Shown here piece by piece: positions 406 to 24,276 of a stretch of 24,276 nt of DNA. Source of the stretch: Nitrospirota bacterium (GTDB taxonomy: Bacteria; Nitrospirota; Nitrospiria; JACQBZ01); the NCBI GenBank assembly GCA_016198945.1, contig JACQHO010000048.1, positions 1 to 24,276 on the forward strand, given 5' to 3'. The notes under the pieces are model-generated. The model was not told where the DNA came from and ran no database searches. It was given only the letters and a program-made list of their open reading frames with translations. A program made the translations under genes and the position numbers. Every line of letters begins with the position of its first letter. Position 1 is the first letter of the stretch.

Positions 406-1629
406 ATGACCGCACGCGATCAATCGACCCGGAACCGCCGGCTCGTCGGGATTCATGGAAACGTACTTCTGCTGGGCGTCGTCAGTTTCTTCAACGACGC
501 GGCCTCGGAGATGATTTATCCTCTCCTGCCCCTCTTTTTGGCGACCGTTCTCGGTGCCGGCCCGGCCGCGCTCGGCATCATCGAAGGGATCGCTGAATCA
601 ACCGCGTCTTTTCTAAAGCTGGCTTCGGGTTTCATCTCTGACCGCGTGCATCGCCGGAAGAACTGGGTCGTGGGCGGATACATTTTATCAAATGCCGCGC
701 GTCCGCTGATCGGACTAACCACGATCTGGACCGGCGTGCTTGCGCTTCGGTTCATCGACCGCATCGGCAAGGGCGTTCGCACCTCGCCCCGGGACGCCTT
801 GATCGCCGAGAGCACTCCCTTTGAATTTCGGGGTAAGGCCTTTGGCTTTCATCGCGCGGCGGACCATGCCGGCGCGGTCGTCGGACCTCTGATCGCGACG
901 CTGCTGCTGGCCGTCTTCATGTTGGATCTAAAGACGGTCTTCCTTTTGTCGGTTATCCCGGGTCTCATCACCGTCGCCGTTCTTTTGATCGGCGTGCGGG
1001 AAATACCGATTGAAACGCGGCCGGCCGCGCGCCATGAACCGCTGAAAATCCGCCGGGCCTGGCGGGAGATGCCGATCCCCCTTCGCCGGTTCGTGCGGGT
1101 TCTATTTCTTTTTACGCTCGGAAACTCGACCGACGCATTTCTCCTTTTGAAAGCACAGCAGCTCGGCGTCTCGGTCGCGCTGATCCCCGTTCTCTGGACG
1201 GCACTTCACATCGTCAAGATGGGAAGCTCGTTGCCCGGAGGAATCGCATCGGACCGGTGGGGAAGAAAAGGCGTGATCGTGACGGGCTGGATGGTTTATG
1301 CGCTGACCTATGCCGGTTTCGCGATTGCCGACGCGGCCTGGCAGGCCTGGGCGCTGTTTGCGGTCTACGGACTTTATTTTGGCCTGACGGAAGGAGCCGA
1401 GAAGGCGTTGATCGCCGATCTCGCCCCGGCGCATCTACGCGGCTCGGCCTTCGGCCTTTATCATCTCATGATCGGGATCGGCGCGCTCCCGGCCTCGCTC
1501 CTGTTCGGCTGGGTGTGGCAGGTCTACGGCGACGCGGCCGCCTTCAGCATGGGGGCGTTCCTTGCGCTGACCGCGGCGCTGCTGCTCGGGTCGGTCCGGT
1601 GGATCTCCACCCCGGGGGAACGACGATGA
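406..1629 (+). CDS. Major facilitator superfamily transporter
   Basis: 407 aa with about 12 hydrophobic segments. MFS motif A-like sequences occur in both halves ([12 protein letters not shown]; [12 protein letters not shown]). Other motifs: [19 protein letters not shown] and [12 protein letters not shown]. Confidence 0.93.
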
Positions 1630-3101
1630 GCACCGGCCCGGAATACATATTGGTGGCGGTCGCGGTGCTGCTGCTGTTGGGTGTGCTGGCGAGCAAGGCC
1701 TCTCAGCGTCTCGGGATCCCGGCGCTGCTGCTGTTCCTGGCGCTCGGCATGCTCGCTGGCTCGGAGGGGCCCGGCGGCATCTACTTTGACGACGCGCACG
1801 CTGCGCAGCGGCTCGGAATCGTGGCGCTCGCATTCATTCTCTTCGCCGGAGGTCTCGATACGTCGATGACGGACATCCGCCCCATGCTCCGGAGCGGCGT
1901 GGCGCTGTCGACTTTGGGCGTGCTGCTGTCGGCGCTCGCGATCGGCTGGTTTGCAACGGTCGCGCTCGACTTCTCCTGGCGTGAAGGCTTGCTGCTCGGC
2001 GCCGTCGTCTCGTCGACCGACGCCGCGGCGGTCTTTGCCGTGCTGCGCTCGCGGAACGTGGGGTTGCGAAAACCGCTGACCCCTCTTCTCGAGTTCGAAT
2101 CAGCAAGCAACGACCCGATGGCGGTCTTTCTCACGCTCGGAATGATCCGACTGGTGTCCGATCCCGCGCTTTCTCCCGCGGCGCTCATTCCGATGTTCCT
2201 GCAGCAAATGGCCGTGGGCGGACTCTTGGGCTATGCGCTCGGCCGTACGGCGCTGGTCGCGATCAATCGGCTGCGACTGGAGTACGAAGGTCTCTACGCC
2301 GTCTTCACCTTGTCGCTGGTATTGCTGGCCTACGGCCTGGCGGCCGCGCTCGGCGGGAACGGCTTTCTCGCCGTCTATCTGGCCGGGCTGGTATTGGGAA
2401 ACGGCAGCTTTATCCACAAGCGCAGTCTGATTCGGTTTCACGACGGTCTCGCCTGGCTGATGCAGATCGCCATGTTCCTCACGCTCGGGCTGCTTGTGTT
2501 CCCGTCGCGCCTCGTCCCGGTGATGGGAATTGGCCTCGTGCTGTCGGTCTACCTGATCGTGGTCGCGCGTCCGGTCAGCGTGATGCTCAGCCTGGCGCTG
2601 GCGAAGGTGAGCGCAAGGGACAAACTCGCGGTCTCATGGGTGGGGCTGCGCGGGGCGGCGCCGATCATCCTCGCCACCTTTCCGATGGTCGCGGACATCG
2701 GCAATGCCGAAATGATTTTCAACCTGGTTTTCTTCATCGTCCTCACCTCGGTAGTGTTGCAGGGCCCCTCGATTCCGGTCATCGCGCGCTGGCTCGGCGT
2801 TGGGGCGGGACCGGACGAGCGCATGCGCTACCCGCTTGAGTTCGAACCGGTTCCCGGCAGCGGGAGCGAGTTGGCCGATCTGAAGGTCCCGCACGATTCG
2901 GCCGCGGTCGGCCGGCGGATCGTCGACCTCGGCCTGCCCCGGGGAACGCTGGTGGTCCTCATTCACCGCGGCGGCGAGTTCATCGTCGCCAGCGGCGGGT
3001 CCGAAATACAGGCGGGCGATTCGCTCCTGGTGCTCGGCCCGTCCGACGGGATCGCGGCCGTGCGCAGGTTGCTGGCGATGCAACGGCCGGTCGAATCATG
3101 A
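1626..3101 (+). CDS. cvrA: Potassium/proton antiporter (CPA1, CvrA/NhaP2-like) with C-terminal RCK_C (TrkA-C) domain
   Basis: True start is MSTGPEY at 1626 (ATGA overlap with the MFS stop), not 1257. Motifs: [39 protein letters not shown]. Soluble C-terminal RCK_C-like region ([20 protein letters not shown]...GDSLLVLG). Confidence 0.88.
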
Positions 3102-5662
3102 CGTTCCAAGACACGCCGAGAGACCGACTGCCGACGGCTTCACTTCCGATCACACCGCTTCTCCCCTCGCTGCGTGAAGCGCTCGCCTCGCATGCGGCCG
3201 CCGTGCTTCAGGCGCCGCCCGGCGCCGGCAAGACCACGGTCGTTCCGCTTTCGCTGTTGGATGAACCCTGGCTTGCGGGTCGGTCCATACTGATACTGGA
3301 ACCCCGCCGGCTGGCCGCACGCGCGGCCGCGGCGCGAATGGCATCCCTGCTGGGCGAATCCGTGGGCGAGACGGTCGGTTATCGCATCCGGTTTGATTCA
3401 AAGATTTCGGCGAGAACACGCATCGAGGTGCTGACGGAAGGAATCCTCACGCGGCGGCTCCAGTCCGATCCCGGCTTGGAGGGCGCGGGGCTTGTGATCT
3501 TCGATGAGTTTCATGAGCGGCATATCCATTCGGATCTGGCTCTGGCGCTCTGTCTTGACAGTCAACGGACCCTGCGCGAGGATCTTAAGCTCCTCGTGAT
3601 GTCCGCAACGCTCGATGGAAAGGCCCTGGCCGCTCTCCTCGGCAACGCGCCGTTGCTCACGAGTCACGGACGCAGTTTTCCGGTGGACGTTCGTTATGCC
3701 GCGCGCGATCCGGAGGAAACCGAAAAGCGACTTCCGGAGACTGTGAAACAGGCCGTGCTGAATGCGCTAAAACATGACAAAGGCGACCTGCTCGTGTTTC
3801 TTCCCGGCGCATGGGAAATACGCCGAACGCAGGAGCTGCTGGAGGCCGCATTGACTCAAGACGCCGTCGATCTTTTCCCCCTCTACGGCGATCTTCCGTG
3901 GGAGGCGCAGGACCGCGCGATCCAACCGTCGCAACGTTCGCGGCGCAAAGTCGTTCTGGCCACGCCGATCGCCGAGACGAGCCTCACGATCGAAGGGATC
4001 GGCGTCGTGATCGACTCGGGCTTTGCGCGGATTCCCGAATTTGATCCGCGGAGCGGTTTGACGCGGCTGACGACACGGCGAATCTCGCGCGCCTCGGCCG
4101 AGCAGCGCGCGGGCCGGGCCGGGCGGCTCGGTCCCGGCGTCTGCTGCAGGCTCTGGACGGAAGCGACGCAGCGCGGGCTGGTCGCACGGCCCATTCCGGA
4201 AATACGCGCGGCCGATCTGACACCGCTTGCGCTCGAGCTTGCGCAATGGGGCGCGCGCGACGCAGGCACGCTTTCGTGGCTCGATCCCCCGCCGGCGGGC
4301 GCGCTGGCGCAGGCCCGACGATTGCTGACCGATCTCGGCGCGCTGGACCCGGAAGGCGTCATCACGCCGGCAGGACGCGCGATGGCCGCGCTGCCGCTCC
4401 ATCCGCGCCTTGCGCATATGGTGCATGCCGCCGATGCGCTCGGCCTCGGCCGTCCGGCCTGCGATATCGCCGCGCTGCTCTCGGAACGGGATATTCTTAC
4501 CGGTGATCGAAAGCGCTCGGTCGATTTTCTGGAGCGGGTCGAGGCATTGCGCGCCTTCCGCGCGCGGGGACGCGCGGGAGATCAGTCGTCCGGCGCTGAT
4601 CCGTCCGCCTGTCAACGCGTCGAGCAGGCGGCGCGTCAATTTCATCGTCTGCTAAGAAGCCGGGAGACCGAGGCCCCGCATCCTGCCGAGGCGGTCGGCC
4701 TTCTTCTCGCGCTCGCCTACCCCGACCGGATCGCGCTCCAACGGGCGCCGGGCGATCTCCGCTATCTCCTCGCATCCGGTCGCGGCGCCCGGTTGCCGAG
4801 GCATGAAAATAAAATGCGTCCGCACTGTCTTGTGGCGGCCCATCTTGATGCCGGCGAAACGGAGGGGACGATCCATCTCGCCGCGGCGGTGGATATCCAT
4901 GCGTTGCGCGATCAAATAGCCTCCCGGTTTCGTACGAACGACATCATCCGTTGGGACGCGCAACTTCAAAGAGTCGTCGCGCAGCGTGAAGAGCGGTTGG
5001 GCGAACTCCTCATCAGCAGCGGCGCGATTCCCGATCCCGATCCGGAAAAACTGCTCGCGGCCGCACTGGAGGGCGTTCGAAGCCTGGGCCTATCGGCGCT
5101 TCCATGGTCGCGCGAGGCGCGCGACTTTCAAACGCGCGTGCTGTCGCTGCAACAATGGTTGCCTCAAGAGAACTGGCCGGATCTGTCCGATCCCGCGCTG
5201 AGGGAGTCGCTCGAAGAATGGCTTGGGCCGTATCTCGGCGGCGTCACCCGCCGCGAACATTTCAATCGGCTGGACCTGCTCGCGATCCTGAAGGCGCGGC
5301 TGGATTGGGCGCTTCAACAACGTCTGGAGGAAGGCGCGCCGACGCATCTGGCCGTTCCCTCCGGATCGCGACTGCGGCTTGAATACCGGCCCGGCGAATC
5401 GCCGGTGCTGGCCGTGAAGCTTCAGGAGATGTTCGGACTGGCCGACACGCCGCGCGTCGCATGGGGAAAGGTGCCCGTGACGCTGCATCTTCTCTCCCCG
5501 GCCCGCCGTCCCATCCAAGTCACGCAGGATCTTCGCGGATTCTGGGAGCGGACCTATGCCGAGGTCAAGAAGGAATTAAAAGGCCGCTATCCCAAGCATC
5601 CCTGGCCCGATGATCCCTGGAAGGCCGTCCCGACCGCCCGCGCCAAACGGCATTCGCGTTAG
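3098..5662 (+). CDS. hrpB: ATP-dependent DEAH-box RNA helicase HrpB
   Basis: Motifs [45 protein letters not shown]. HrpB-type C-terminus AVKLQEMFG...[19 protein letters not shown] overlap with the upstream stop. Confidence 0.95.
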
Positions 5663-5691
5663 TTGACATATTTTTTGAAGAGGATTATACA
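5663..5691 (+). promoter_or_regulatory. Possible sigma70-type promoter for the metallopeptidase gene
   Basis: TTGACA (5663-5668), 17-nt spacer, TATACA (5686-5691) in an AT-rich intergenic gap. The -10 lacks the final T. Confidence 0.4.
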
Positions 5692-5700
5692 GACAGGGAA

Positions 5701-6726
5701 ATGGAACACGCCTCATTGCTCGCCGCCGCCCGAACCCATCTCCGCGACACCATCACGCTGGCCCTCGGCCATACTCCCGACCGAAGAGCGCTTCTGGTGT
5801 ATGATGAACAATCAAGCCTCGCAACGCTGGTTGCGGAGGGGTATCGCGCCATCCTGCCGGACGCCGCCGCGTTGAATTTCGATGAAGCGACGGCGGAGGA
5901 AATCCTGCGGGCCGTGGACGCGCTTTCGCCGAAGGACTTGGTGATCTTCGTCCAGTCAACCCGCTTCCGACTCAATGAATTTCGGTTTCGAATCGAGATC
6001 TTCAACCGCAACTTGAAAGTGATCGAGCATCCCCACCTTGCGCGGATCCGCGAAGAGGAGTTTTCAACATATATCGACGCCCTGGCATATGACCCGGCCT
6101 ATTACCGCACCATCGGACCGGCGCTCAAGAAACGCCTCGACCGCACGCGTCATGTCAAGGTGATCTGTGAAGGGACCGAGCTCGTCTACGATACCCCCTT
6201 TGAAGATGCGAAATTGAACATCGGGGACTATTCCGGGATGAAGAACATCGGAGGACAGTTTCCGATCGGCGAGGTCTTCACCGAGCCGAAGGAAATCCGC
6301 AGCGTGAACGGGACGATCAAGCTTTTCGCGTTTGGCGATACCGATTTTTCAGTGAACGCGACCGAAAAACCATTTTCCGCAGCGATTGAACAGGGGATAA
6401 TGGTCGCCGCGCCCGATGCGCCGGAGGCCTTCCACGTCGTGCTTGAGCAAATCCGCGCCGATGAGGGCGTGATATGGGTGCGAGAGTTGGGTTTCGGTCT
6501 GAACCGCGCGCTCACCCGTGAGCGGCGCGTGAGCGATATCGGCGCGTATGAGCGGATGCTCGGCGTCCATCTCTCCCTCGGCGCCAAGCATGCCATGTAT
6601 ACGAAGGCGGGGTTCCCCAAAAAGCACCGATTTCACGTGGATGTCTTCGCGGCCGCCGAGCGCGTGGAGGTGGATGACGAAACAATCCTTGAGGGGAAGA
6701 GGTATACGCTCGGATCACCGCGTTGA
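5701..6726 (+). CDS. Thermophilic metalloprotease (M29/aminopeptidase T)-like protein
   Basis: The C-terminal half keeps the M29-fold metal-ligand pattern: FPIGEVF, RELGFGLN, YERMLGVHLSLG, HVDVF. The N-terminal half is divergent. Confidence 0.7.
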   Translation: MEHASLLAAARTHLRDTITLALGHTPDRRALLVYDEQSSLATLVAEGYRAILPDAAALNFDEATAEEILRAVDALSPKDLVIFVQSTRFRLNEFRFRIEIFNRNLKVIEHPHLARIREEEFSTYIDALAYDPAYYRTIGPALKKRLDRTRHVKVICEGTELVYDTPFEDAKLNIGDYSGMKNIGGQFPIGEVFTEPKEIRSVNGTIKLFAFGDTDFSVNATEKPFSAAIEQGIMVAAPDAPEAFHVVLEQIRADEGVIWVRELGFGLNRALTRERRVSDIGAYERMLGVHLSLGAKHAMYTKAGFPKKHRFHVDVFAAAERVEVDDETILEGKRYTLGSPR

Positions 6727-6906: not shown

Positions 6907-8109
6907 GTGGAAAACAATCTTCTGATCGCGATGACCTGGTTCATACTGGCGCTCGCGGCTTCTCTGATCTCGATACGGATCGGCGTCTCGGTCGCACTGG
7001 TCGAGATCCTGGTCGGCACACTGGGCGGGAACTTCATCGGCCTTCATCCCAACGACTGGATCAATGTGCTGGCCGGTTTCGGAAGCGTCGTGCTGACCTT
7101 CCTGGCCGGGGCTGAGCTGGACCCCAAGGTGCTTCGGCGAAAATGGAGGGAGAGCCTCGGGATCGGATTCGCCTCGTTCTTCGCGCCGTTTCTCGGCGCG
7201 ATGGCCTACGCCTATTGGATCGCGGGCTGGTCGCCGGAGGCGTCCCAGATCGCGGGCATCGCGCTTTCGACCACTTCGGTGGCCGTGGTCTATGCCGTGA
7301 TGATCGAGCGGGGGTATAATCAGACCGAGCTGGGTCAGGTGATTCTCGCGGCCTGCTTCATCACGGACCTGGGCACCGTGCTGGCGCTGGGACTGCTGTT
7401 TGCAAGCTACGATCGCTGGCTGCTGGTTTTTGTGGTTGTGCTGGCCCTCTCTCTTTGGCTTCTTCCGCGGACGACTCCATGGATCTTTGCCCGCATGAGA
7501 AGCCACATCAGCGAGCCGGAAACGAAATATCTTTTAGTCGTCCTGTTCGGCCTCGGGGCCCTGTCGATGGCCGCAAAGAGCGAGGCGGTGCTTCCGGCCT
7601 ACCTCATCGGGATGGTTCTGGCGCCGGTCTTTCTTGCGAATCGTACGCTGGCTCAGCGGCTGCGCGTGATGACCTTCACTCTGCTGACCCCGTTTTATTT
7701 TCTGAAGGCCGGCGCCCTGGTGAATCTGCCGGCCGTCACGACCGGCGCGGCCTTGATCGGCGTCTTTCTGGCGGTGAAGATCGGTGCTAAATTTATCGGC
7801 GTCTGGCCGCTGACGCATTTTTTCCGCTTTGGGAGACGGGAAGGGATGTACACCACGCTGCTGATGTCCACGGGACTGACGTTCGGCACCATTTCCTCGC
7901 TGTACGGGCTGACGAATCATCTGATTGACCAGAGCCAGTACACGGTTCTCGTCACGGTCGTTATCCTCACCGCCGTCGTGCCGACCTTCTTCGCCGAACG
8001 CTGGTTTGATCCCAATGGAAAGACTGCAAACGAAGAGCAAGCATCCATGAAGTCACCCCAACAGAAACTTGAATCCGCCGCACCTGTCCTTAAAAAAGGA
8101 GAATCGTGA
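6907..8109 (+). CDS. Cation:proton antiporter (CPA2/Kef-like fold), fluoride-riboswitch controlled
   Basis: GTG start with GAAGGA upstream. 400 aa with about 13 hydrophobic segments. Motifs FLAGAELD, ALSTTSVAVV, ITDLGTVLALG, VKIGAK. Confidence 0.85.
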   Translation: MENNLLIAMTWFILALAASLISIRIGVSVALVEILVGTLGGNFIGLHPNDWINVLAGFGSVVLTFLAGAELDPKVLRRKWRESLGIGFASFFAPFLGAMAYAYWIAGWSPEASQIAGIALSTTSVAVVYAVMIERGYNQTELGQVILAACFITDLGTVLALGLLFASYDRWLLVFVVVLALSLWLLPRTTPWIFARMRSHISEPETKYLLVVLFGLGALSMAAKSEAVLPAYLIGMVLAPVFLANRTLAQRLRVMTFTLLTPFYFLKAGALVNLPAVTTGAALIGVFLAVKIGAKFIGVWPLTHFFRFGRREGMYTTLLMSTGLTFGTISSLYGLTNHLIDQSQYTVLVTVVILTAVVPTFFAERWFDPNGKTANEEQASMKSPQQKLESAAPVLKKGES

Positions 8110-8531
8110 TGTTTTCAAAAATCCTCGTTGCAGATGACGGCTCGGAGGGAGCGAAGAAAGCGCTGGGCGTTGCGATCGATCTGGCCAAGCGTTATCAGGC
8201 CGAGCTGCATACCCTCTCGGTGGAGGAACACCTGCCGCATTACGCCGCCACGGTCGGCGAGGTGGTGGAGGCGCACGCCGAGGCGGACGACTATTTTAAA
8301 AAGATCACGAAGGAGGCGAAGGCTATCGCAACCCAGCAGGGCGTCGCGCTTCATGCCCATGTCATGCCCGGTCATGAGGTCGAGACGGTCGTGACCTTTG
8401 CCAAGGAAAAGGGCTTCGATCTTTTGGTGATCGGTTTCATGGGCCATTCCAAAATCTTCGGCCGGATCTGGGGCAGCACCTCGCAAAATTTGACCCGATT
8501 GTCGCCCTGCACCGTCCTGGTGGTAAAGTAA
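8109..8531 (+). CDS. Universal stress protein (UspA family)
   Basis: KILVADDGS at the N-terminus and DLLVIGFMGHS...WGSTSQNLTRLSPCTVLVVK at the C-terminus. TGATG overlap with the antiporter stop (alternative GTG at 8106). Confidence 0.92.
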   Translation: MFSKILVADDGSEGAKKALGVAIDLAKRYQAELHTLSVEEHLPHYAATVGEVVEAHAEADDYFKKITKEAKAIATQQGVALHAHVMPGHEVETVVTFAKEKGFDLLVIGFMGHSKIFGRIWGSTSQNLTRLSPCTVLVVK

Positions 8532-14845: not shown

Positions 14846-15352
14846 TCATCCATAAAGTGTCACGGCCGCTTTTTTGTCGGCGGCCGCCCCTTTTTTCTTT
14901 TTAGGGGTCACCGACTTGGCTTCTCCCCGCACCGTCAGGACCGGACAGGAAGACATCCGGACCACTTTTTCGGCCACGCTTCCCAGCAGGAGATGCTCCA
15001 CCCCGGTCCGTCCGTGGGTTCCCATCACGATCAGGCCGGCCTTCGCGCGGACGGCTTTCTGCAAAATCTCGCGGTGGGCCGGCCCCGTCAGAAGATCCGT
15101 TTCCACCGACACCCCCTGCCGAGCCAGTTTCTTCGCGGCCTGATCGAGCAGCGGTTTCGCGATCGCTTTAAGGGTGGTGTAATGGTCCACCAGGTTGAAG
15201 GTCTCGGTCATGGAATAGGTGTACGGCTCGATGACATGGACCAGGAGGATGCGGGCCTTGAAGATTCGGGCCAGGGTCGCCGCGTACTGCATCGCCTCGT
15301 CCGAGCCGTCTGAAAAGTCCGTGGGCGTGAGAATCGTTTTGAGCGGTTTCAT
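14846..15352 (-). CDS. Universal stress protein (UspA family)
   Basis: ILTPTDFS, LIVMGTHGRTGVEHLLLGSVAEKVVRMSSCPVLTV. Strong SD AAAGGAGG upstream. Lys/Ala-rich tail. Confidence 0.93.
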   Translation of the reverse strand: MKPLKTILTPTDFSDGSDEAMQYAATLARIFKARILLVHVIEPYTYSMTETFNLVDHYTTLKAIAKPLLDQAAKKLARQGVSVETDLLTGPAHREILQKAVRAKAGLIVMGTHGRTGVEHLLLGSVAEKVVRMSSCPVLTVRGEAKSVTPKKKKGAAADKKAAVTLYG

Positions 15353-16808: not shown

Positions 16809-17597
16809 CTAGCGGTCATCCTCCCCTTTTCTCAACCACATCTCCCAGAGCGGGATCAGGAGCTGTGCCGCGAGGGCCGCCCCCATCAAGGCGCCCCCGA
16901 TGATCACGGTGTAGGCGAAGACCGGCTGGTACTTTGTGAACCACCAGGAGCCGATGTCCATCCAGATCGCAATGAACGGAAGCGCGATGATCGCCAGCCT
17001 CAAATATTGATTGACCTCGCTCAACGCAAAGATCATCCCGGTCAACAGGAAAATGAAACTCATCCCGAACAGATGGATATGGGTCACGCGGGAAAGCGCG
17101 CGGATGGACTGGCCCAGGTCCAGCTCAGCCAGCCGGACGACATCCTCGTAGGTCGTCAAAGGGGCGACGGCATATCCCGAATCCTTGCTGTGACAGGAGA
17201 CGCAGTTCTTCTCAAACAGCGGCCGGATATTCTCATATCCCTCCTCGGTCGCGCCGGCCCGGATCCACTTCACCACCTCGGCCTTTTCGGCCGGATCGAT
17301 CATCTCGGCCATCACGCCGTTGAGCGCGGCCTCCAGACGGGTATTGCCGCGGTTGCCGTAATACTTGACGATCGTCGCCTCGACCAGGCCCAGGCCCATC
17401 TTCCGGTGCGGTTCCACCTCCAGGAGAAACAGGTAAACCAGCGCAAAAAGATAACCCAGCCCGATGGTCAGAAGAAAAAAGCTGAACAGCCACCGAAACG
17501 TCAGCGGCAAACCGCGGAGCGTCAGCCGCCTGCGGTTGACGGTCGATTCGTTGGGATTCATACGTCCGATCTCGGACCGAGCATCTCCGTCCTCCAT
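16809..17597 (-). CDS. Integral membrane c-type cytochrome (4 TM, one CxxCH), function unknown
   Basis: CVSCH at 17190-17204 lies in a soluble loop between TM1 and TM2. THIHLFG lies in TM2. Start is 17597 or 17561. Confidence 0.75.
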   Translation of the reverse strand: MEDGDARSEIGRMNPNESTVNRRRLTLRGLPLTFRWLFSFFLLTIGLGYLFALVYLFLLEVEPHRKMGLGLVEATIVKYYGNRGNTRLEAALNGVMAEMIDPAEKAEVVKWIRAGATEEGYENIRPLFEKNCVSCHSKDSGYAVAPLTTYEDVVRLAELDLGQSIRALSRVTHIHLFGMSFIFLLTGMIFALSEVNQYLRLAIIALPFIAIWMDIGSWWFTKYQPVFAYTVIIGGALMGAALAAQLLIPLWEMWLRKGEDDR

Positions 17598-17600
17598 CGT

Positions 17601-17963
17601 CTACTTGGCCGAATCGTCCTTCTTCTCCTCCGCTTTTTCTTCTTTCATCATCCCCTTGCCCTTCATCATTTCCTGGTGCTGTTTCATCATCTCGTCCATC
17701 TGTTTCATCATCTCGTCCATTTTCTGTTTTGTGGGAGGGTCCTGGGCCATCCCCTTCATGCTCTCCATCATCCCGTGCATCATCCCCATCATCTCGTGCA
17801 TCATCCCGCCCATCATGTCACGTTTCATTCTCTTCTGGTCCCGGTCCATCTTCTTCGTCTGGTCGCCCTTCATCATCCCGTCGCCCCCCATTTGAGCCGA
17901 GGCCGCGGAACCGATCAGAAGGATCGCCGCGAGCAGACAAGCCCCCATCGTTTTGATCTTCAT
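17601..17963 (-). CDS. Exported methionine-rich low-complexity protein
   Basis: Strong SD GGAGG, signal peptide ending ASA-Q, 29 Met in 120 aa, MMH and MDEMMKQ repeats. Confidence 0.8.
   Translation of the reverse strand: MKIKTMGACLLAAILLIGSAASAQMGGDGMMKGDQTKKMDRDQKRMKRDMMGGMMHEMMGMMHGMMESMKGMAQDPPTKQKMDEMMKQMDEMMKQHQEMMKGKGMMKEEKAEEKKDDSAK
17679..17720. repeat. Perfect 21-bp tandem duplication inside the Met-rich gene
   Basis: CTGTTTCATCATCTCGTCCAT twice (17679-17699, 17700-17720), encoding MDEMMKQ twice. Confidence 0.95.
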
Positions 17964-18030: not shown

Positions 18031-20730
18031 TTATGACGATACCGTCTCTTTCCGGATAAACCGCTTGCGGAATTCTTCCAGGACCAGCATTCCGGCGGCG
18101 AAGGGAATCATAAAAAGCCAGACCTCCGGCACAATCGGGGCCGTGCCGAAAATCTGATTCCCCCACGGCGTGTAATCAATCAGCAGGATCAAACCGATCT
18201 CGGCCGCGATCCCCCACAGGATGAACGGGTTGCTGAAGAACCCGAAAGAGAATACCGATTCGTGATCACTCCGGCATAAAAAGACGTTCACGACCTGCAT
18301 CACGATGATCGCGGAGAGACAGGCCGTCGTGGCCTGTAAATAAAGGGGATCATTCCAGGCCAGCGCCTGTCCGAATTGCCACCCGCCCCGGTGAAGAACA
18401 AAGAGGAAGGCCGCCATGGCTGCAACGGCCTCCAAGACCCCCAAAAAAAGATACGCCCGAAAGATCAGCGCCCGGTTCCACAGACGCTCCTTGGAAGAAC
18501 GGGGCGGCCTCTTCATCAGCCCGGGCTCGGGCTTCTCCACCCCCAGTGCGAGGGCCGGCAGCATGTCCGTTCCCAAATCCACCGCCAGGATCTGTATGAT
18601 CGTCAGGGCCAATGGCAACTTGACCAGCGCAAAGGCCAGGTACGGCGCCAGCTCGGGAATGTTGGAGGTCAGAATATAGGTGAGAAATTTCCGGATATTG
18701 GAAAAGACGGCGCGGCCTTCTTCAATCGCGCCGACGATGCTGGCGAAGTTGTCGTCCAGAAGGATCATATCGGACGCTTCCCGCGCCACATCCGTTCCCG
18801 TGATTCCCATCGCAATCCCGATATCGGCCCGCTTCAGCGCCGGCGCATCGTTCACCCCGTCTCCCGTGACGGCCACGACTTCCTTCTTGCGTTTCAAGGC
18901 CTCGACGATCCGCATCTTCTGATCCGCGCCGACGCGGGCGAAAATAATCTCAGGAGCATCCAGGGCCAACTGGAGCTGGGCGGGGGAAAGCCGCTGGAGC
19001 TGATCCCCGGTAATGATCGTCGGCAACGCGGATTTGACCAGACCGATCTCGCGTGCGACGGCCAACGCGGTATGGGGATGGTCACCGGTCACCATGATCA
19101 CCTTGATCCCGGCCTCTTCGCATTTCCGAATCGCGCCGGGCACCTCCGGGCGGGGAGGGTCCTCAAGCCCCACGAGCCCGGTCAGGATCATCTCTTCCTC
19201 CAGATGGAGACGGTCATGCCCCTCTGAAACGGGACGGCAGGCAAAGGCCAGAACCCTCAAGCCACCGGTCGCCATCGTCTCCTCGGCGCGTAGGAAGCCG
19301 TCTTTCAAATCCGGGGTGAGGGGTTGAATATCTCCATTCCGCAGAACCCGACGGCAGAGCGGAAGAACCGTTTCCAGCGCGCCTTTTGTATAAAGAACCG
19401 ATCCGGGAGATTTCTTATGAAGAACGGAAAGCCTTTTTCGATCCGAATCGAACGGAACTTCGTCCAACCGAGGATAGTCCTCAAGAACCGGGATCGCCTT
19501 TTTGGCCATCTCGACCAAAGCGACCTCCATGGGATCCCCCGACAGTTCCTCCCTTCCATCTTTTTCGATCTTTTTGAGGTTGTGGCAGAAGAGCGCTGTT
19601 TCAAAAAATTGTCGGTGGGTATCCTGTAGGGGCGCACGGCCGTGCGCCCCTACATCGGAAGGAACATAAAACCGATCATCGAGATAAAGCCTTTTCACCG
19701 CCATACGATTCATTGTGATCGTACCCGTTTTATCGGTACAGATCACCGTGGCCGATCCCAATGTTTCCACGGACGGGAGATGTCGGATCAAGGCGTTTCG
19801 TTTCGCCATTCGTTGAGAGCCCATCGCCAGGGCCAGGGTGACGGTCGGAAGCAGTCCCTCGGGAACATTGGCGACAATGATGCCGATCGCAAAGATGAAG
19901 TTCTGCCAGAACGAGAGTCCGAGGGCCTGCCCGATAAAAAAGAAAGCAACGCCCAGGCCCGTCGCCAGCAGGGCCACCATGCGGCTCAGGCGAATGATCT
20001 CCTTCTGGAGGGGGGATGGGACTTCTCCCTGGGTCTGGGTCAGGTGGGCGATCCTGCCGAACTCGGTATGCATCCCGGTGGCAAAAACCAGGGCCCGGGC
20101 CTGGCCCGAGACAACCGAGGTGCCGGCCAGCAGAATGTTTTTGCTCCGGATCAGTTCTTCTCTATCGCTGGGATGGATCTCCCGGGCCTTCGGCAACGAT
20201 TCGCCGGTGATCGTGGCATTGTTCACACGGACCCCGAAACCCTGGACCAACCGGCAGTCGGCCGGAATCGCATCCCCTTCCGCCAGAAGAATCAGGTCGC
20301 CGGGGACCAACGCCGCCGCCGGGACCTGGATCACCTTGCCGTTTCGGAGCGCCTTGACCTGATGGGGAAGAATCTTTTGAAGGGCCGCAATCGCCTTCTC
20401 GGCCCGATATTCCTGCCAGAACGAGAACAATCCGTTGATCAGGATCACGCCCAGGATCGCAAAGCCCAGCGTCATCATCCCTTTTCCCGGATCATTCCAT
20501 TCGGCTATAAAGGCCAGACCTGCCGCGAGTAAGAGGATCACGGCAAAAAAATGGGTGAAGCCCTTCAAAAAACGGAGGATCAGAGGCTCCGCCCGTATTT
20601 TCTCGACGCGATTCGGACCGAACTCCGTCAACCGCCGGGCCGCCTCCTCCGTCGAAAGGCCTTCGGGACCGCTGTGGAGACTCTGAAGGGCCTCCTCCAC
20701 TGTGAGATGATGAATTTTCATCGCCGTCAC
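18031..20730 (-). CDS. Cation-transporting P-type ATPase, P2C (Na,K-ATPase)-like
   Basis: Motifs [58 protein letters not shown]. Start is GTG 20730 (GTGA overlap with the hydrogenase stop) or ATG 20721. Confidence 0.93.
19625..19654. repeat. Perfect 30-bp GTAG-type REP-like palindrome inside the ATPase coding sequence
   Basis: TGTAGGGGCGCACGGCCGTGCGCCCCTACA is its own reverse complement. It is read in frame as [10 protein letters not shown]. Confidence 0.85.
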
Positions 20731-22037
20731 TCAGACTCATAATGCAGTCGCAGAAAATGCGTCGCGCATGAGATGCACGGATCGTAATTGCGTATAGTTT
20801 GCTCGCACCGCAGTCCCAATTCTTCCTTGGACAGGCCGATATTCGACTGCACAAACCGCCGCAGATCGCTTTCGATCATCGCCTGATTCTGCGACGTCGG
20901 CGGAACGATCTTCGCTTCCTGAATGATCCCGTTCTCATCCACCCGGTAACGATGATACAGAATGCCGCGCGGGGCCTCGGTGCAGCCGGCGCCCGTTCCG
21001 GCACGGGGCCGGACCGGAACCGCCGGCGTCTCCGGCATTTCGTAGCCCCCAATGATTCGAAGCGCCTCGTCACAGGCATAGAGGATCTCGACGGATCGAA
21101 CGACGACGCTGCGGAAGGGATTGCGACAGACCGGTGAAAGGCCGGCCGACCGGGCCGCCTCCTGCGCGAGCGGCGAGAGCCGGTCAAAGTTGAGGCTGTA
21201 ACGGGCCATCGGGCCGACCAAATAGCCGCCCTGCCCGTCCGGCAGGCGGGCCCGGTTCTTGAACCGGGAATGCATCGCATGGCTGTGCGGCACCTGTTCC
21301 TCGATGAACTCATTCTCGTAGTCCCGCGTCGAAATCGTCAGACCCCGGTTCGAAACAAGACGGCCTTCGTTAAACGGATATTCGAAGGGATGGCGCAGCG
21401 ATACGAATTCATAGTCCTGTTCGAATTCCGGGAACGGCAGCACGGCGGTCCACCGAACCAATTCAAGAGCGGCGTCCCGCGCCCACTTGAGCCGCTCCGA
21501 AAGCGGGGCGAGCTCGCGTTTTGTCGGAACTTTATAGAACCCGCCGACACGGACATTGATCGGGTGGACTTCCCGCCCGCCGAGAAGCGCGATGATTTCG
21601 TTCCCCGCCTCCTTCAGCCGGAGTCCCCGCTCGACGACCCCGGGATGGTCCTTCGCCATTTTGAAGCCGTCGGGATAGCCCAGAAAGTCCGGGGCGTGAA
21701 GCATGACGACATGAAGCGCATGACTTTCGATCCACTCGCCGCAGTAGATCAGACGGCGAAGCGCGCGGAGCGGACCCCCCACCTCGATGCCGAAGGCGTC
21801 CTCCATCGCATGGACCGCGCTCATCTGGTAGGCGACCGGACAGATGCCGCAGATCCGGGCCGTGATGTCGGGGGCCTCGGAAAAGGACCGCCCCCGCAGC
21901 AGCGCCTCGAAAAAGCGCGGCGGCTCAAAGATCTCCAGCCGGACATCCACGACCGTGCCGCCCTTGATCTTCAGATAGAGCCCGCCCTCGCCCTCGACAC
22001 GGGCGAGGCCGCCCACCTTAATCGTTCCGTTTTTCAT
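20727..22037 (-). CDS. hyhL: Group 3b [NiFe]-hydrogenase large (alpha) subunit
   Basis: Start MKNGT at 22037. Motifs ARVEGEG, L1 [23 protein letters not shown]2 DPCISCATH followed by a 9-aa C-terminal extension. Confidence 0.95.
21230..21268. repeat. Two adjacent hairpins inside the hydrogenase large subunit gene, one a REP-like 21-bp element
   Basis: CCTGCC-CGTCC-GGCAGG (21230-21246) followed by CGGG, then CCCGGTTC-TT-GAACCGGG (21251-21268, perfect 8-bp arms). Bases 21231-21251 encode ARLPDGQ. Confidence 0.65.
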
Positions 22038-22806
22038 GCTTTTCACTTTCTTTGCGAAACGCCTCGGCATGGGCGTTGACGCCGCGAAAGACTTGCATGA
22101 TTTCCCGTTCACCCGCGCCGAGACGGCTCCATCCCCGGCTCAACGCGGCCGTGTTCGGCGTCTCCTTCGGGCCGAAGCAGCCGTAACAGCCGCGGTCATA
22201 CGACGGACAGATCGCGCCGCAGCCGGCATGGGTGACGGGGCCGAGGCAGGGCGTGCCGTGCGCCACCATTACACAGACATTTCCTTTGAGTTTGCATTCG
22301 ATGCAGACGCTGTGGGCCGGCACATTCGGCCTGCGTCCGTTCAGCAGGGCGACGATCACTTCAAGCAATTGCCGTTTGTCGATGGGGCAACCGCGGAGTT
22401 CGAAATCCACGGGAACGTGATCCGCGATCGGCGTGGAGGTCTCGAGCGTCTCGATATAGTCCGGACGGGCATAAACGATCGAAACAAATTCCTTGACGTC
22501 CTTGAAATTCCGGAGTGCCTGGATGCCGCCGGCCGTCGCGCATGCGCCGATCGTAATGAGGACCTTTGATGCGCGGCGGACTTGCTGAATACGCTTGAGA
22601 TCCTGCGGCGTCGTAATCGAGCCCTCCACCAACGAAAGATCATACGGACCCTTCACCACCGCGCGAGAGGCCTCGAGAAAATGGGCGATCTCGACCCGTT
22701 CGACCAGGGCCGGCAGCTCGTCCGTGCAATTGAGAAGACTCAACTGGCAGCCGTCGCAGGAGGCGAATTTCCAGACGGCAAGTTTCGGCTTTTGATTTTT
22801 CCTCAT
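22018..22806 (-). CDS. hyhS: Group 3b [NiFe]-hydrogenase small (delta) subunit
   Basis: Motifs [26 protein letters not shown], and distal cysteines [19 protein letters not shown]...CYGCFGP. Confidence 0.94.
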
Positions 22807-22807
22807 C

Positions 22808-23638
22808 TCAAATCTCGCTGGTTCCGAACCATTCCTTGATCCGATCGTACCGGAGCACCGGCCCGTCCTTGCAGATGAAGGCCGGCCCGAACTGGCAATG
22901 CCCGCAGAAACCGACGGCGCATTTCATGTTTCGCTCCAATGACAGATAGATCCGGCCCTCGGCCAGTCCCTGCGCAAGCAGGTCCCGCACCGCATGCCGC
23001 ATCATGGTCTCCGGACCGCACATCATCACGATGCTTCTATCGGGGTTGATGCGAACCTGCCGGAAAAGATTCGTGACCACGCCGACATTGTATTTCCATT
23101 CACGGTCCGGATGATCCACGGTAAGGTAAACCTCCGTATCCGGATGTTTCTGCCAGGCATGAAAGCGCGCGCGGTAGAGCAGATCCTTCGGGGTCTTGAC
23201 CCCGTGGAAGATCTTGAGATTGCCGTAGCGGTCGCGCCGGTTGGCGACATAATTGATTACCGAGATGACGGGGGCGCAGCCCAGTCCGCCCGTGACGATC
23301 ACGACATCCTTGCCCGCGGCCTCTTCCAACGGCCATGAGCTCCCGTAAGGCCCCCGGAGGCCGACCGTATCGCCTTTTTTCAGGCCGACGAGAGCGGCCG
23401 AGACCTTCCCGACGATGCGGATCGTGTGGTCCAGAACTCCCGATTCGTCCGGGTCCGAAACGATCGAGATCGGAACTTCCCCCGCCCCAAAGACATAGAG
23501 CATGTTGAACTGCCCCGACCGAAACCGATAGGATCGCCGGACCGCTTCATCCCGGAGGCGAAGACGCAACGTATGCACCCGCAGGGCCTCCCGGCGCTTC
23601 CCGATCACCTCCGCCGCATGGGGAATCCACAGGTTCAT
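22808..23638 (-). CDS. hyhG: Group 3b hydrogenase gamma subunit (FAD/NAD(P)-binding, [2Fe-2S])
   Basis: True start MNLW at 23638 (ATGA overlap with the beta stop). Motifs [53 protein letters not shown]. Confidence 0.93.
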
Positions 23639-24276
23639 TTCTTTGTCTCCCGGATGGCGCGGACCTCTTCGGTGATGTCGATCGCGACGGGACACCACGT
23701 GATGCACCGGCCGCAGCCCACGCAGCCCGATGTCCCGAACTGATCGATCCACGTCGCCAGCTTGTGCGTCATCCATTGGCGGTAGCGCGACTTGACTGAG
23801 GGCCGGACGGTCCCGCCGTGGACATACGAGAAATCCGACGTGAAGCAGGAGTCCCACTTCCGCCAGCGCTCGGCATGCTCTCCGGTCAGGTCCGTCACGT
23901 CCTCCACCGTTGAACAAAAACAAGTCGGACAGACCATGGTGCAGTTTGCGCAGCTCAGACAGCGCGTCGCGACCTCATCCCATCGCGGGTGTTCCAGATT
24001 TTGATACAGCAGGTTTTTGATATCGGTCGTGTCCAGAGTGCGGCCCATTTGAGACGCCGTCGCCGCCACAATGCGCTCGACCGCCGCACGATCCTTCTCG
24101 GTCGCTTCGGTATGCGGCAGGTCGCGAAGCACCTCCGCGCCCCGTTCCGTACCGGCTTCGACCGTGAAGGTGTGCCGGCCGGACTCCAGAACCTCGGTCA
24201 GCGCGAGATCAAATCCGGCCGTCGCCCTGGGTCCTGTTTTCATCGAAACGCAGAAGCAGGTTCCGCCGGCCTGACC
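23635..24276 (-). CDS. hyhB: Group 3b hydrogenase beta subunit, 2x[4Fe-4S] (C-terminal part; runs off the right edge)
   Basis: The frame stays open to 24276 ([12 protein letters not shown]...). Motifs [40 protein letters not shown]. Confidence 0.93.

Follow-up and report, generated by a model that had tools for sequence, protein, structure and literature searches.

A PF27139 membrane cytochrome c of a Nitrospirota bacterium with a haem module in apparently rotated class I order

In class I cytochromes c, the N-terminal helix with its CxxCH motif comes first, followed by the methionine ligand and then by the C-terminal helix. A haem unit in which the methionine comes first has a solved precedent, as the inner unit of the nested dihaem cytochrome FoxE, a soluble Fe(II)-oxidising cytochrome c of Rhodobacter ferrooxidans SW2 (PDB 5MAB): haem I is held by Cys37-Cys40-His41 and the far C-terminal Met208, and the ligating methionine of haem II precedes its CxxCH (PMC10654088). 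An engineered circular permutant of cytochrome c555 has been published as well (Oda et al. 2018, as cited in PMC8565734). Periplasmic haem c on the inner membrane is also carried by NapC, CymA and NrfH and by the membrane-anchored c_y and CcoP, with genes beside porin-cytochrome or oxidase genes, and the route of electrons from outer-membrane Fe(II)/Mn(II) oxidases to the inner membrane is still poorly known (PMC12442390). Here we describe a protein of the PF27139 family that we consider, with rather more conviction than doubt, to be an inner-membrane monohaem c-type cytochrome with a rotated class I haem module, exchanging electrons between periplasmic cytochromes and a site in its membrane core. 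It would resemble NapC/CymA/NrfH, c_y and CcoP in its location and gene setting, but those proteins have one transmembrane (TM) helix, 1–4 haems in normal order and no homology to its 4-TM core.

The window, which is the whole stretch of 24,276 nucleotides that we analysed (contig JACQHO010000048.1 of assembly GCA_016198945.1), carries at 16809–17597 on the minus strand an open reading frame whose translation is 262 aa long; the start codon of most homologues is the equivalent of M13 (ATG 17559–17561). As judged from the assignment of PF27139 (Aq_1264_TM; Pfam 38.1, precomputed) to all 120 homologues listed, including one 95% identical, the protein is a member of this family, and the nearest ESM Atlas clusters likewise carry PF27139. 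Local Pfam and NCBIfam searches with the protein itself gave sub-threshold matches around the CxxCH only. PF27139 is catalogued without an assigned function, and no paper naming the family or aq_1264 was found in the literature library searched, which is incomplete. The automatic name “elongation factor-1 alpha” on some Atlas clusters we take to be a misannotation. An exhaustive HMMER search returned 896 clusters (50% identity) at E ≤ 1e-3 and 424 at E ≤ 1e-10, and a pattern scan of species-level genomes confirmed at least 583 loci in Nitrospirota (the closest, including Manganitrophaceae), Zetaproteobacteria, Gallionellaceae, Thiobacillus, Methylococcales, Methylophaga, Bradyrhizobium, Xanthobacteraceae and others. 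In the extensions of ten longer members no Pfam domains were found, and therefore no informative fusion.

An AlphaFold2 model built from 65 diverse homologues (mean pLDDT 93.6, pTM 0.82) has four long helices at residues 32–66, 165–190, 197–221 and 225–254 and a helical domain of about 100 residues between helices 1 and 2, in agreement with the initial annotation, which had placed a haem domain between TM1 and TM2 of a four-helix protein. TM1 (residues 32–66; 17400–17504) is preceded by RRRLTLRGL and appears to be an N-in signal anchor; because of this Arg-rich start, the N-terminus is predicted to be cytoplasmic and the TM1–TM2 loop periplasmic, which is the side required for haem attachment. 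Like the CxxCH of class I cytochromes c, which lies in an extracytoplasmic segment, the CVSCH motif of the protein (residues 132–136, with C132, C135 and H136; 17190–17204) sits in this predicted periplasmic loop. It is conserved at about 100% (257–259 of 259) in the set of 269 family members over which conservation was counted. The organism's genome, 69% complete, holds three Cytochrom_C_asm genes, of the CcmF, CcmC and CcsA types.

The protein has the core traits of PF27139, namely four TM helices, an HxH on TM2 and Asp/Trp on TM3. TM1 ends at its periplasmic side with a widely conserved histidine, H64, and is followed by a loop helix of the core (residues 67–85, GLxxxxIxKYYG; 17343–17399). 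TM2 (residues 165–190; 17028–17105) carries H173-I-H175 (17073–17081) near the periplasmic face; this motif, which the initial annotation had already located on TM2, opens the helix and is nearly invariant (H173 in 252 of 256 and H175 in 253 of 256). The periplasmic end of TM3 (residues 197–221; 16935–17009) has W212, D214 (16956–16958), W218, W219 and K222, and TM4 (residues 225–254; 16836–16925) has FAY (227–229), G235 and Q245; D214 is kept in 238/248 members, W218 in 233/247 and G235 in 240/241. M96, CxxCH, HxH and D214 are thus all 96–100% conserved among the 269 relatives. Among the same 269 members, the half of the bundle that faces the cytoplasm has no His, Met or Cys that is conserved.

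A comparison within the organism's own genome separates the core from the haem module. Contig C100 encodes a PF27139 paralogue of 165 aa (L081, 3767–4264, minus strand) that has no CxxCH and keeps the loop helix with its YxG, an HFH on TM2, the D..W..K of TM3 and the FAY of TM4. The part that it lacks corresponds to residues 86–159 of our protein (17121–17342), so that, from this sequence comparison, the 74-aa haem module has been inserted into a 4-TM core with redox associations; the core is common to our protein and the haem-less paralogues, and the haem insert is present in only part of the family. Haem-less paralogues retain the HxH too, which assigns this motif to the membrane core and makes it an unlikely ligand of the c-type haem; it may instead bind haem b or copper, as the initial annotation had suggested, or a quinone. 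The paralogue stands in an operon (2838–6490 of the same locus, minus strand) that runs from a gene for a 233-aa protein through an ApbE+FMN_bind fusion (517 aa) and the paralogue to two Cupredoxin_1 proteins, and the order ApbE/FMN_bind, PF27139, cupredoxin recurs in 8 of the 8 genomes examined (our own and 7/7 relatives, down to 58% identity). Judged from gene order, then, the PF27139 core consistently accompanies periplasmic one-electron carriers, and this operon is a candidate for a new flavinylation-linked periplasmic redox system.

Genes for haem-bearing relatives tend to lie near other genes with a CxxCH. In the neighbourhoods of 80 loci, whose open reading frames were called crudely and whose gene boundaries are approximate, CxxCH occurs in 17.7% of the genes within 2.5 kb vs 3.7% of those further away (Fisher p = 5e-11, a value that ignores genome relatedness), and 36 of 71 loci have a CxxCH-bearing neighbour within 2.5 kb. 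Neighbours that were checked against Pfam include an MtrB_PioB porin with a decahaem cytochrome, Cyc2-like proteins, Rieske proteins with cytochrome b, a bd-like oxidase, NapC and small cytochromes c; no neighbour conserved across the whole family was found. In Methylococcaceae (L056 and L058) the order is decahaem MtrA-like, MtrB_PioB porin, family member. One Nitrospirota locus (L005) reads MtrB_PioB porin, universal stress protein, Cyc2-like, cytochrome c, family member, Rieske, cytochrome b/c, and another (L003) reads cytochrome c, Cyc2-like, family member, with divergent cytochromes c and a bd-like oxidase subunit I. In Bradyrhizobium (L021) a normal-order PSCyt1 cytochrome precedes the family member, and a NapC-like protein, a 16-haem protein and an MtrB-like porin are encoded nearby. 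Several zetaproteobacterial loci have the order family member, monohaem c, dihaem c, HemN-like, and in several Nitrospira loci the family member is followed by a 155-aa cytochrome c.

In our window, no cytochrome gene neighbours the gene. It lies between the gene for a methionine-rich protein and that for pyruvate kinase, which overlaps its 3′ end by 11 nt, and downstream of the gene for a type II P-type ATPase. Elsewhere in the genome are three genes for Cyc2-like cytochrome-porin fusions, on contigs C23 (L082, 838–2067, minus strand), C162 and C224, all short; their proteins have an N-terminal AWARKY..C..CH, a length of about 410–450 aa and a C-terminal Phe. From their sequences, these genes suggest a capacity for Fe(II) or Mn(II) oxidation at the outer membrane. 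A search of this genome (69% complete) for MtrB/PioB found none. The ATPase, of the Ca/Na,K-like kind (18031–20730), is an unusual partner in a hydrogenase operon: at 18031–23923 on the minus strand, genes of a group 3b-type [NiFe] hydrogenase (FAD/NAD-type subunit, 22808–23923; small subunit, 22018–22806; large subunit, 20727–22112) run with a 4-nt overlap into the ATPase gene. Genes for cation transporters abound in the window, among them two for Na_H_Exchanger of which one has TrkA_C, as do genes for universal stress proteins (1257–3101, 6907–8109, 8106–8531 and 14846–15352); universal stress protein genes flank the clusters of Cyc2-like genes and family members in L003, L005 and L012 too. 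A 341-aa open reading frame at 5701–6726 on the plus strand matches no Pfam family at E ≤ 1e-5.

This setting bears on the main rival to our reading, that the protein handles copper or another metal. The His/HxH/Asp cluster would then bind copper, with the haem c acting as reductant of Cu(II) or oxidant of Cu(I), or else copper would be handed to periplasmic proteins, together with the methionine-rich protein and P-type ATPases. The gene 3 nt upstream of ours (17601–17963, minus strand) encodes a secreted protein of 120 aa without a family match, of which 24% is Met in MxxM and MM runs, and its sequence makes it a possible Cu(I)-binding partner. Similar Met-rich secreted reading frames lie within 4–6 kb of the family member at only 2 other loci (L003, 12762–13502; L004, 9465–9872), Cu-type P1B ATPases are encoded near the gene in three Nitrospira loci (L004, L010 and L015), and cupredoxin genes are always found downstream of the haem-less paralogue. 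Against this, no more than 3 of 81 loci have Met-rich genes close by, P-type ATPases in the neighbourhood belong to mixed classes (type II in the window, L009, L011 and L017; H+-type in L029), the protein itself lacks Met-rich and CxxC copper motifs, and cytochrome c neighbours are far commoner. We therefore regard a role in copper handling as unlikely and favour electron exchange with periplasmic cytochromes.

The haem module itself has the order opposite to that of class I cytochromes c. Residues 86–159 run as a helix, a GxM loop, a C-type helix with WIxxGA, an N-type helix, CVSCH, a loop and a short helix with PLTTYEDV. The positions given in the initial annotation are correct by codon: MAEM (M96–M99) at 17301–17312, WIRAGA (17250–17267) ending at 17250, and CVSCH and HIH where we place them. 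Its observation that a Met segment and a WxxxGA helix stand ahead of the CxxCH was borne out, and the conservation of GxM and WxxxGA, which it proposed to check, holds in the family, with M96 (17310–17312) kept in 239/244 members (98%) and W111 in 246/249. It had named a second Met as well; M96 alone is conserved and M99 varies, and we propose M96 as the distal (sixth) ligand. With class I cytochromes c (PF13442 Cytochrome_CBB3 and PF00034; H. thermophilus c552, A. aeolicus c555) the module shares a CxxCH N-helix, a GxM-type Met loop and a helix, ending in WIRAGA, equivalent to the C-terminal helix with its conserved aromatic residue 15–16 residues past the Met. It differs from them in that the halves are swapped, the profile scores lie under the cut-offs and the module forms part of a polytopic membrane protein.

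Several sequence comparisons bear on whether this order is a true rotation. In native order the protein scored 15.7 bits against PF13442 and PF00034, vs cut-offs of 27 and 21.3. In a search of PDB sequences, the loop-domain profile matched hydrazine synthase alpha in two halves (CxxCH half 644–669, WIxxGA half 747–766) that stand in the order opposite to the query; further matches ran over the junctions between units of an engineered cytochrome c555 trimer and, without a break, along the 96-aa c555-derived chain 5Z25. In hhalign, family columns 118–143 followed by 66–117 were set against 16 ordinary monohaem cytochromes encoded beside family members: the re-ordered profile scored 37.8 over 59 columns and the native order 30.5 over 16, and none of 60 shuffles of the first-half columns reached the observed score (mean 30.7, sd 0.6, maximum 33.9). 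When the 74-aa module was rotated stepwise, the aligned columns rose from 26 to 61–64 solely at cut points 113–125. Of the 68 positions of PF13442, 5–68 aligned with the re-ordered sequence of our protein (20.0 and 21.7 bits; cut-off 27) and 5–21 or 5–27 with the native order (17.3 and 19.2 bits). When ordinary cytochromes were scored with a re-ordered HMM, the gain reached as much as 11 bits and 58 matched positions. Re-ordering brings only a small gain (2.5–7 units). Simple rotation of the whole 109-residue loop gave none in hhalign; it appears once the 74-aa module is delimited or the head and tail are removed. All cytochrome c profile matches stay below the Pfam gathering scores (maximum 21.7 vs 27 bits). 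Four sequence tests, each modest and mutually concordant, thus speak for a module circularly permuted with respect to class I cytochromes c. The original proposal of such a permutation is partly supported: the halves stand in the order that it described, and re-ordering them gives an end-to-end profile match, below the Pfam cut-offs. The PSCyt1-like type that it took for comparison is not supported, as PF07635 has no match at E ≤ 10 on the window protein and the best profile is PF13442, below its cut-off.

Sequential structure searches are nearly blind to permutation. Foldseek gave no match in the PDB for either the full model or the domain model, and VIA-align of the full model returned nothing beyond generic 4-helix bundles. 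With the domain model, VIA-align ranked FoxE (5mab_A) first among 48,161 chains (Z 4.7, rmsd 3.0, 65 residues aligned, 31% identity), a weak match that lies within the chance range for small helical domains. The match pairs residues 36–101 of the model with 115–218 of the chain, over which FoxE has about 38 extra residues. The model side starts one residue before M96 (model 37) and takes in the CxxCH (model 73–77), and the FoxE side starts at the axial Met (~116) and takes in the CxxCH (~169–173), 5MAB numbering being about +22 relative to the FoxE residue numbers cited above. By these aligned ranges, rather than by a residue-level alignment, M96 would fall at the axial Met of FoxE haem II. 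In the PDB sequence search with the loop-domain profile, FoxE gave no match at E ≤ 10. The likeness to FoxE haem II lies in the axial Met before the CxxCH and in a helical domain of His/Met type, the ligation in our protein being predicted; FoxE is soluble and dihaem, with the Met-first unit nested in a normal-order unit, whereas our protein has a lone unit in the loop of a membrane protein. The chain 5Z25 is presumably the c555 permutant of Oda et al., judging from its entry length and naming. It and the covalent c555 trimer 9L08 resemble the module in that the C-terminal helix leads into the N-terminal one, with the CxxCH after it; they differ in being man-made and soluble and in having an inserted linker helix.

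An arrangement without any permutation would explain part of these results. The stretch ahead of the CxxCH would then merely look like the C-terminal portion of class I cytochromes and the loop would fold in its own way; with a histidine (H64, H173 or H175) as distal ligand, the haem would be bis-His and lie at the membrane surface. Such an arrangement would fit the blank Foldseek searches, the cytochrome models of Pfam that all stay below cut-off, and the behaviour of the first half alone, which matches H. thermophilus c552 weakly (E ~0.8), co-linearly and with M96 at most 1 residue from the axial Met, and which gave no Pfam cytochrome match in 43 members. On the other side, the highly conserved M96 is part of the insert that is absent from the haem-less paralogue, which retains the HxH; several independent comparisons align over the full length after re-ordering, at a score that no shuffle attained; and the Met-first arrangement exists in the solved FoxE structure. 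Taken together, these points make an unpermuted domain with bis-His ligation quite improbable, and we retain the rotated module with His/Met ligation.

Some longer proteins show the module in other combinations. In the planctomycete-type relatives P0182 (646 aa), P0190 and P0225, its two halves are multiplied separately, with three Met/WxxGA halves in a row and then three CxxCH halves ahead of TM2–4, so that most of them would have to pair non-contiguously. The multihaem protein P0261 (887 aa) begins with two tandem copies of this Met-first module (75 aa), followed by MtrC/c7-like multihaem regions, which, as far as sequence tells, indicates that the module is mobile and works outside PF27139.

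Based on these findings, we propose the following mechanism for the rotated cytochrome. The module would place helix 3, the Met loop and the C-terminal helix first and the N-terminal helix with the CxxCH second, as in FoxE haem II. Its haem is probably attached in the periplasm by a Ccm/Ccs system, with H136 and M96 as the predicted ligands. The haem domain probably trades single electrons with soluble periplasmic cytochromes c, which in the relatives could be fed by Cyc2-like or MtoAB-like outer-membrane modules, and it would pass electrons to, or take them from, a site on the periplasmic side of the core, where the conserved polar cluster of His (end of TM1), HxH (TM2), Asp/Trp/Lys (TM3) and Tyr (TM4) might hold a quinone or a bound metal. 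NrfH/CymA and DsbB have periplasmic-side quinone sites, and a quinone pocket in this core may be imagined purely by analogy with them. Since a conserved redox ligand is absent on the cytoplasmic side, electrons would not be carried across the membrane. It is very improbable that the protein instead serves a terminal oxidase or bc-type complex (bd-like in Nitrospirota, cbb3 elsewhere) as an accessory or electron-entry subunit, in the manner of CcoP or cytochrome c_y and with a core lacking a redox site of its own: L003 and L005 do adjoin bd-like oxidase with membrane cytochromes c and Rieske with cytochrome b/c, respectively, and Zetaproteobacteria have mono- and dihaem cytochromes c and a HemN-like gene after the family member, but such oxidase and bc neighbours are lineage-specific, and a polar cluster retained in haem-less paralogues that are paired with FMN and copper proteins argues for a site of the core's own.

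No description of a natural stand-alone permuted cytochrome c was found in the literature library searched, which is incomplete. If the rotated order holds, the protein would be such a stand-alone natural cytochrome c, an arrangement otherwise known as the nested haem II of FoxE and from engineered permutants; the order is of interest for the part of duplication and excision in haem-domain evolution and for the maturation of a CxxCH placed after its distal ligand. The PF27139 family is widespread in lineages relevant to Fe(II)/Mn(II) oxidation and in several of them lies between Cyc2-like or MtoAB-like genes and bc-type or oxidase genes. A broader proposal, which we put forward tentatively and regard as doubtful at present, is that PF27139 is an unrecognised inner-membrane module that would couple periplasmic one-electron carriers, whether its own haem c or FMN proteins and cupredoxins, to the quinone pool at the HxH/Asp site. 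The haem-bearing form may then supply the inner-membrane acceptor that is missing from the Cyc2/MtoAB-type pathways of Fe(II)/Mn(II) oxidation and electron uptake in Nitrospirota, Zetaproteobacteria, Gallionellaceae and methanotrophs.
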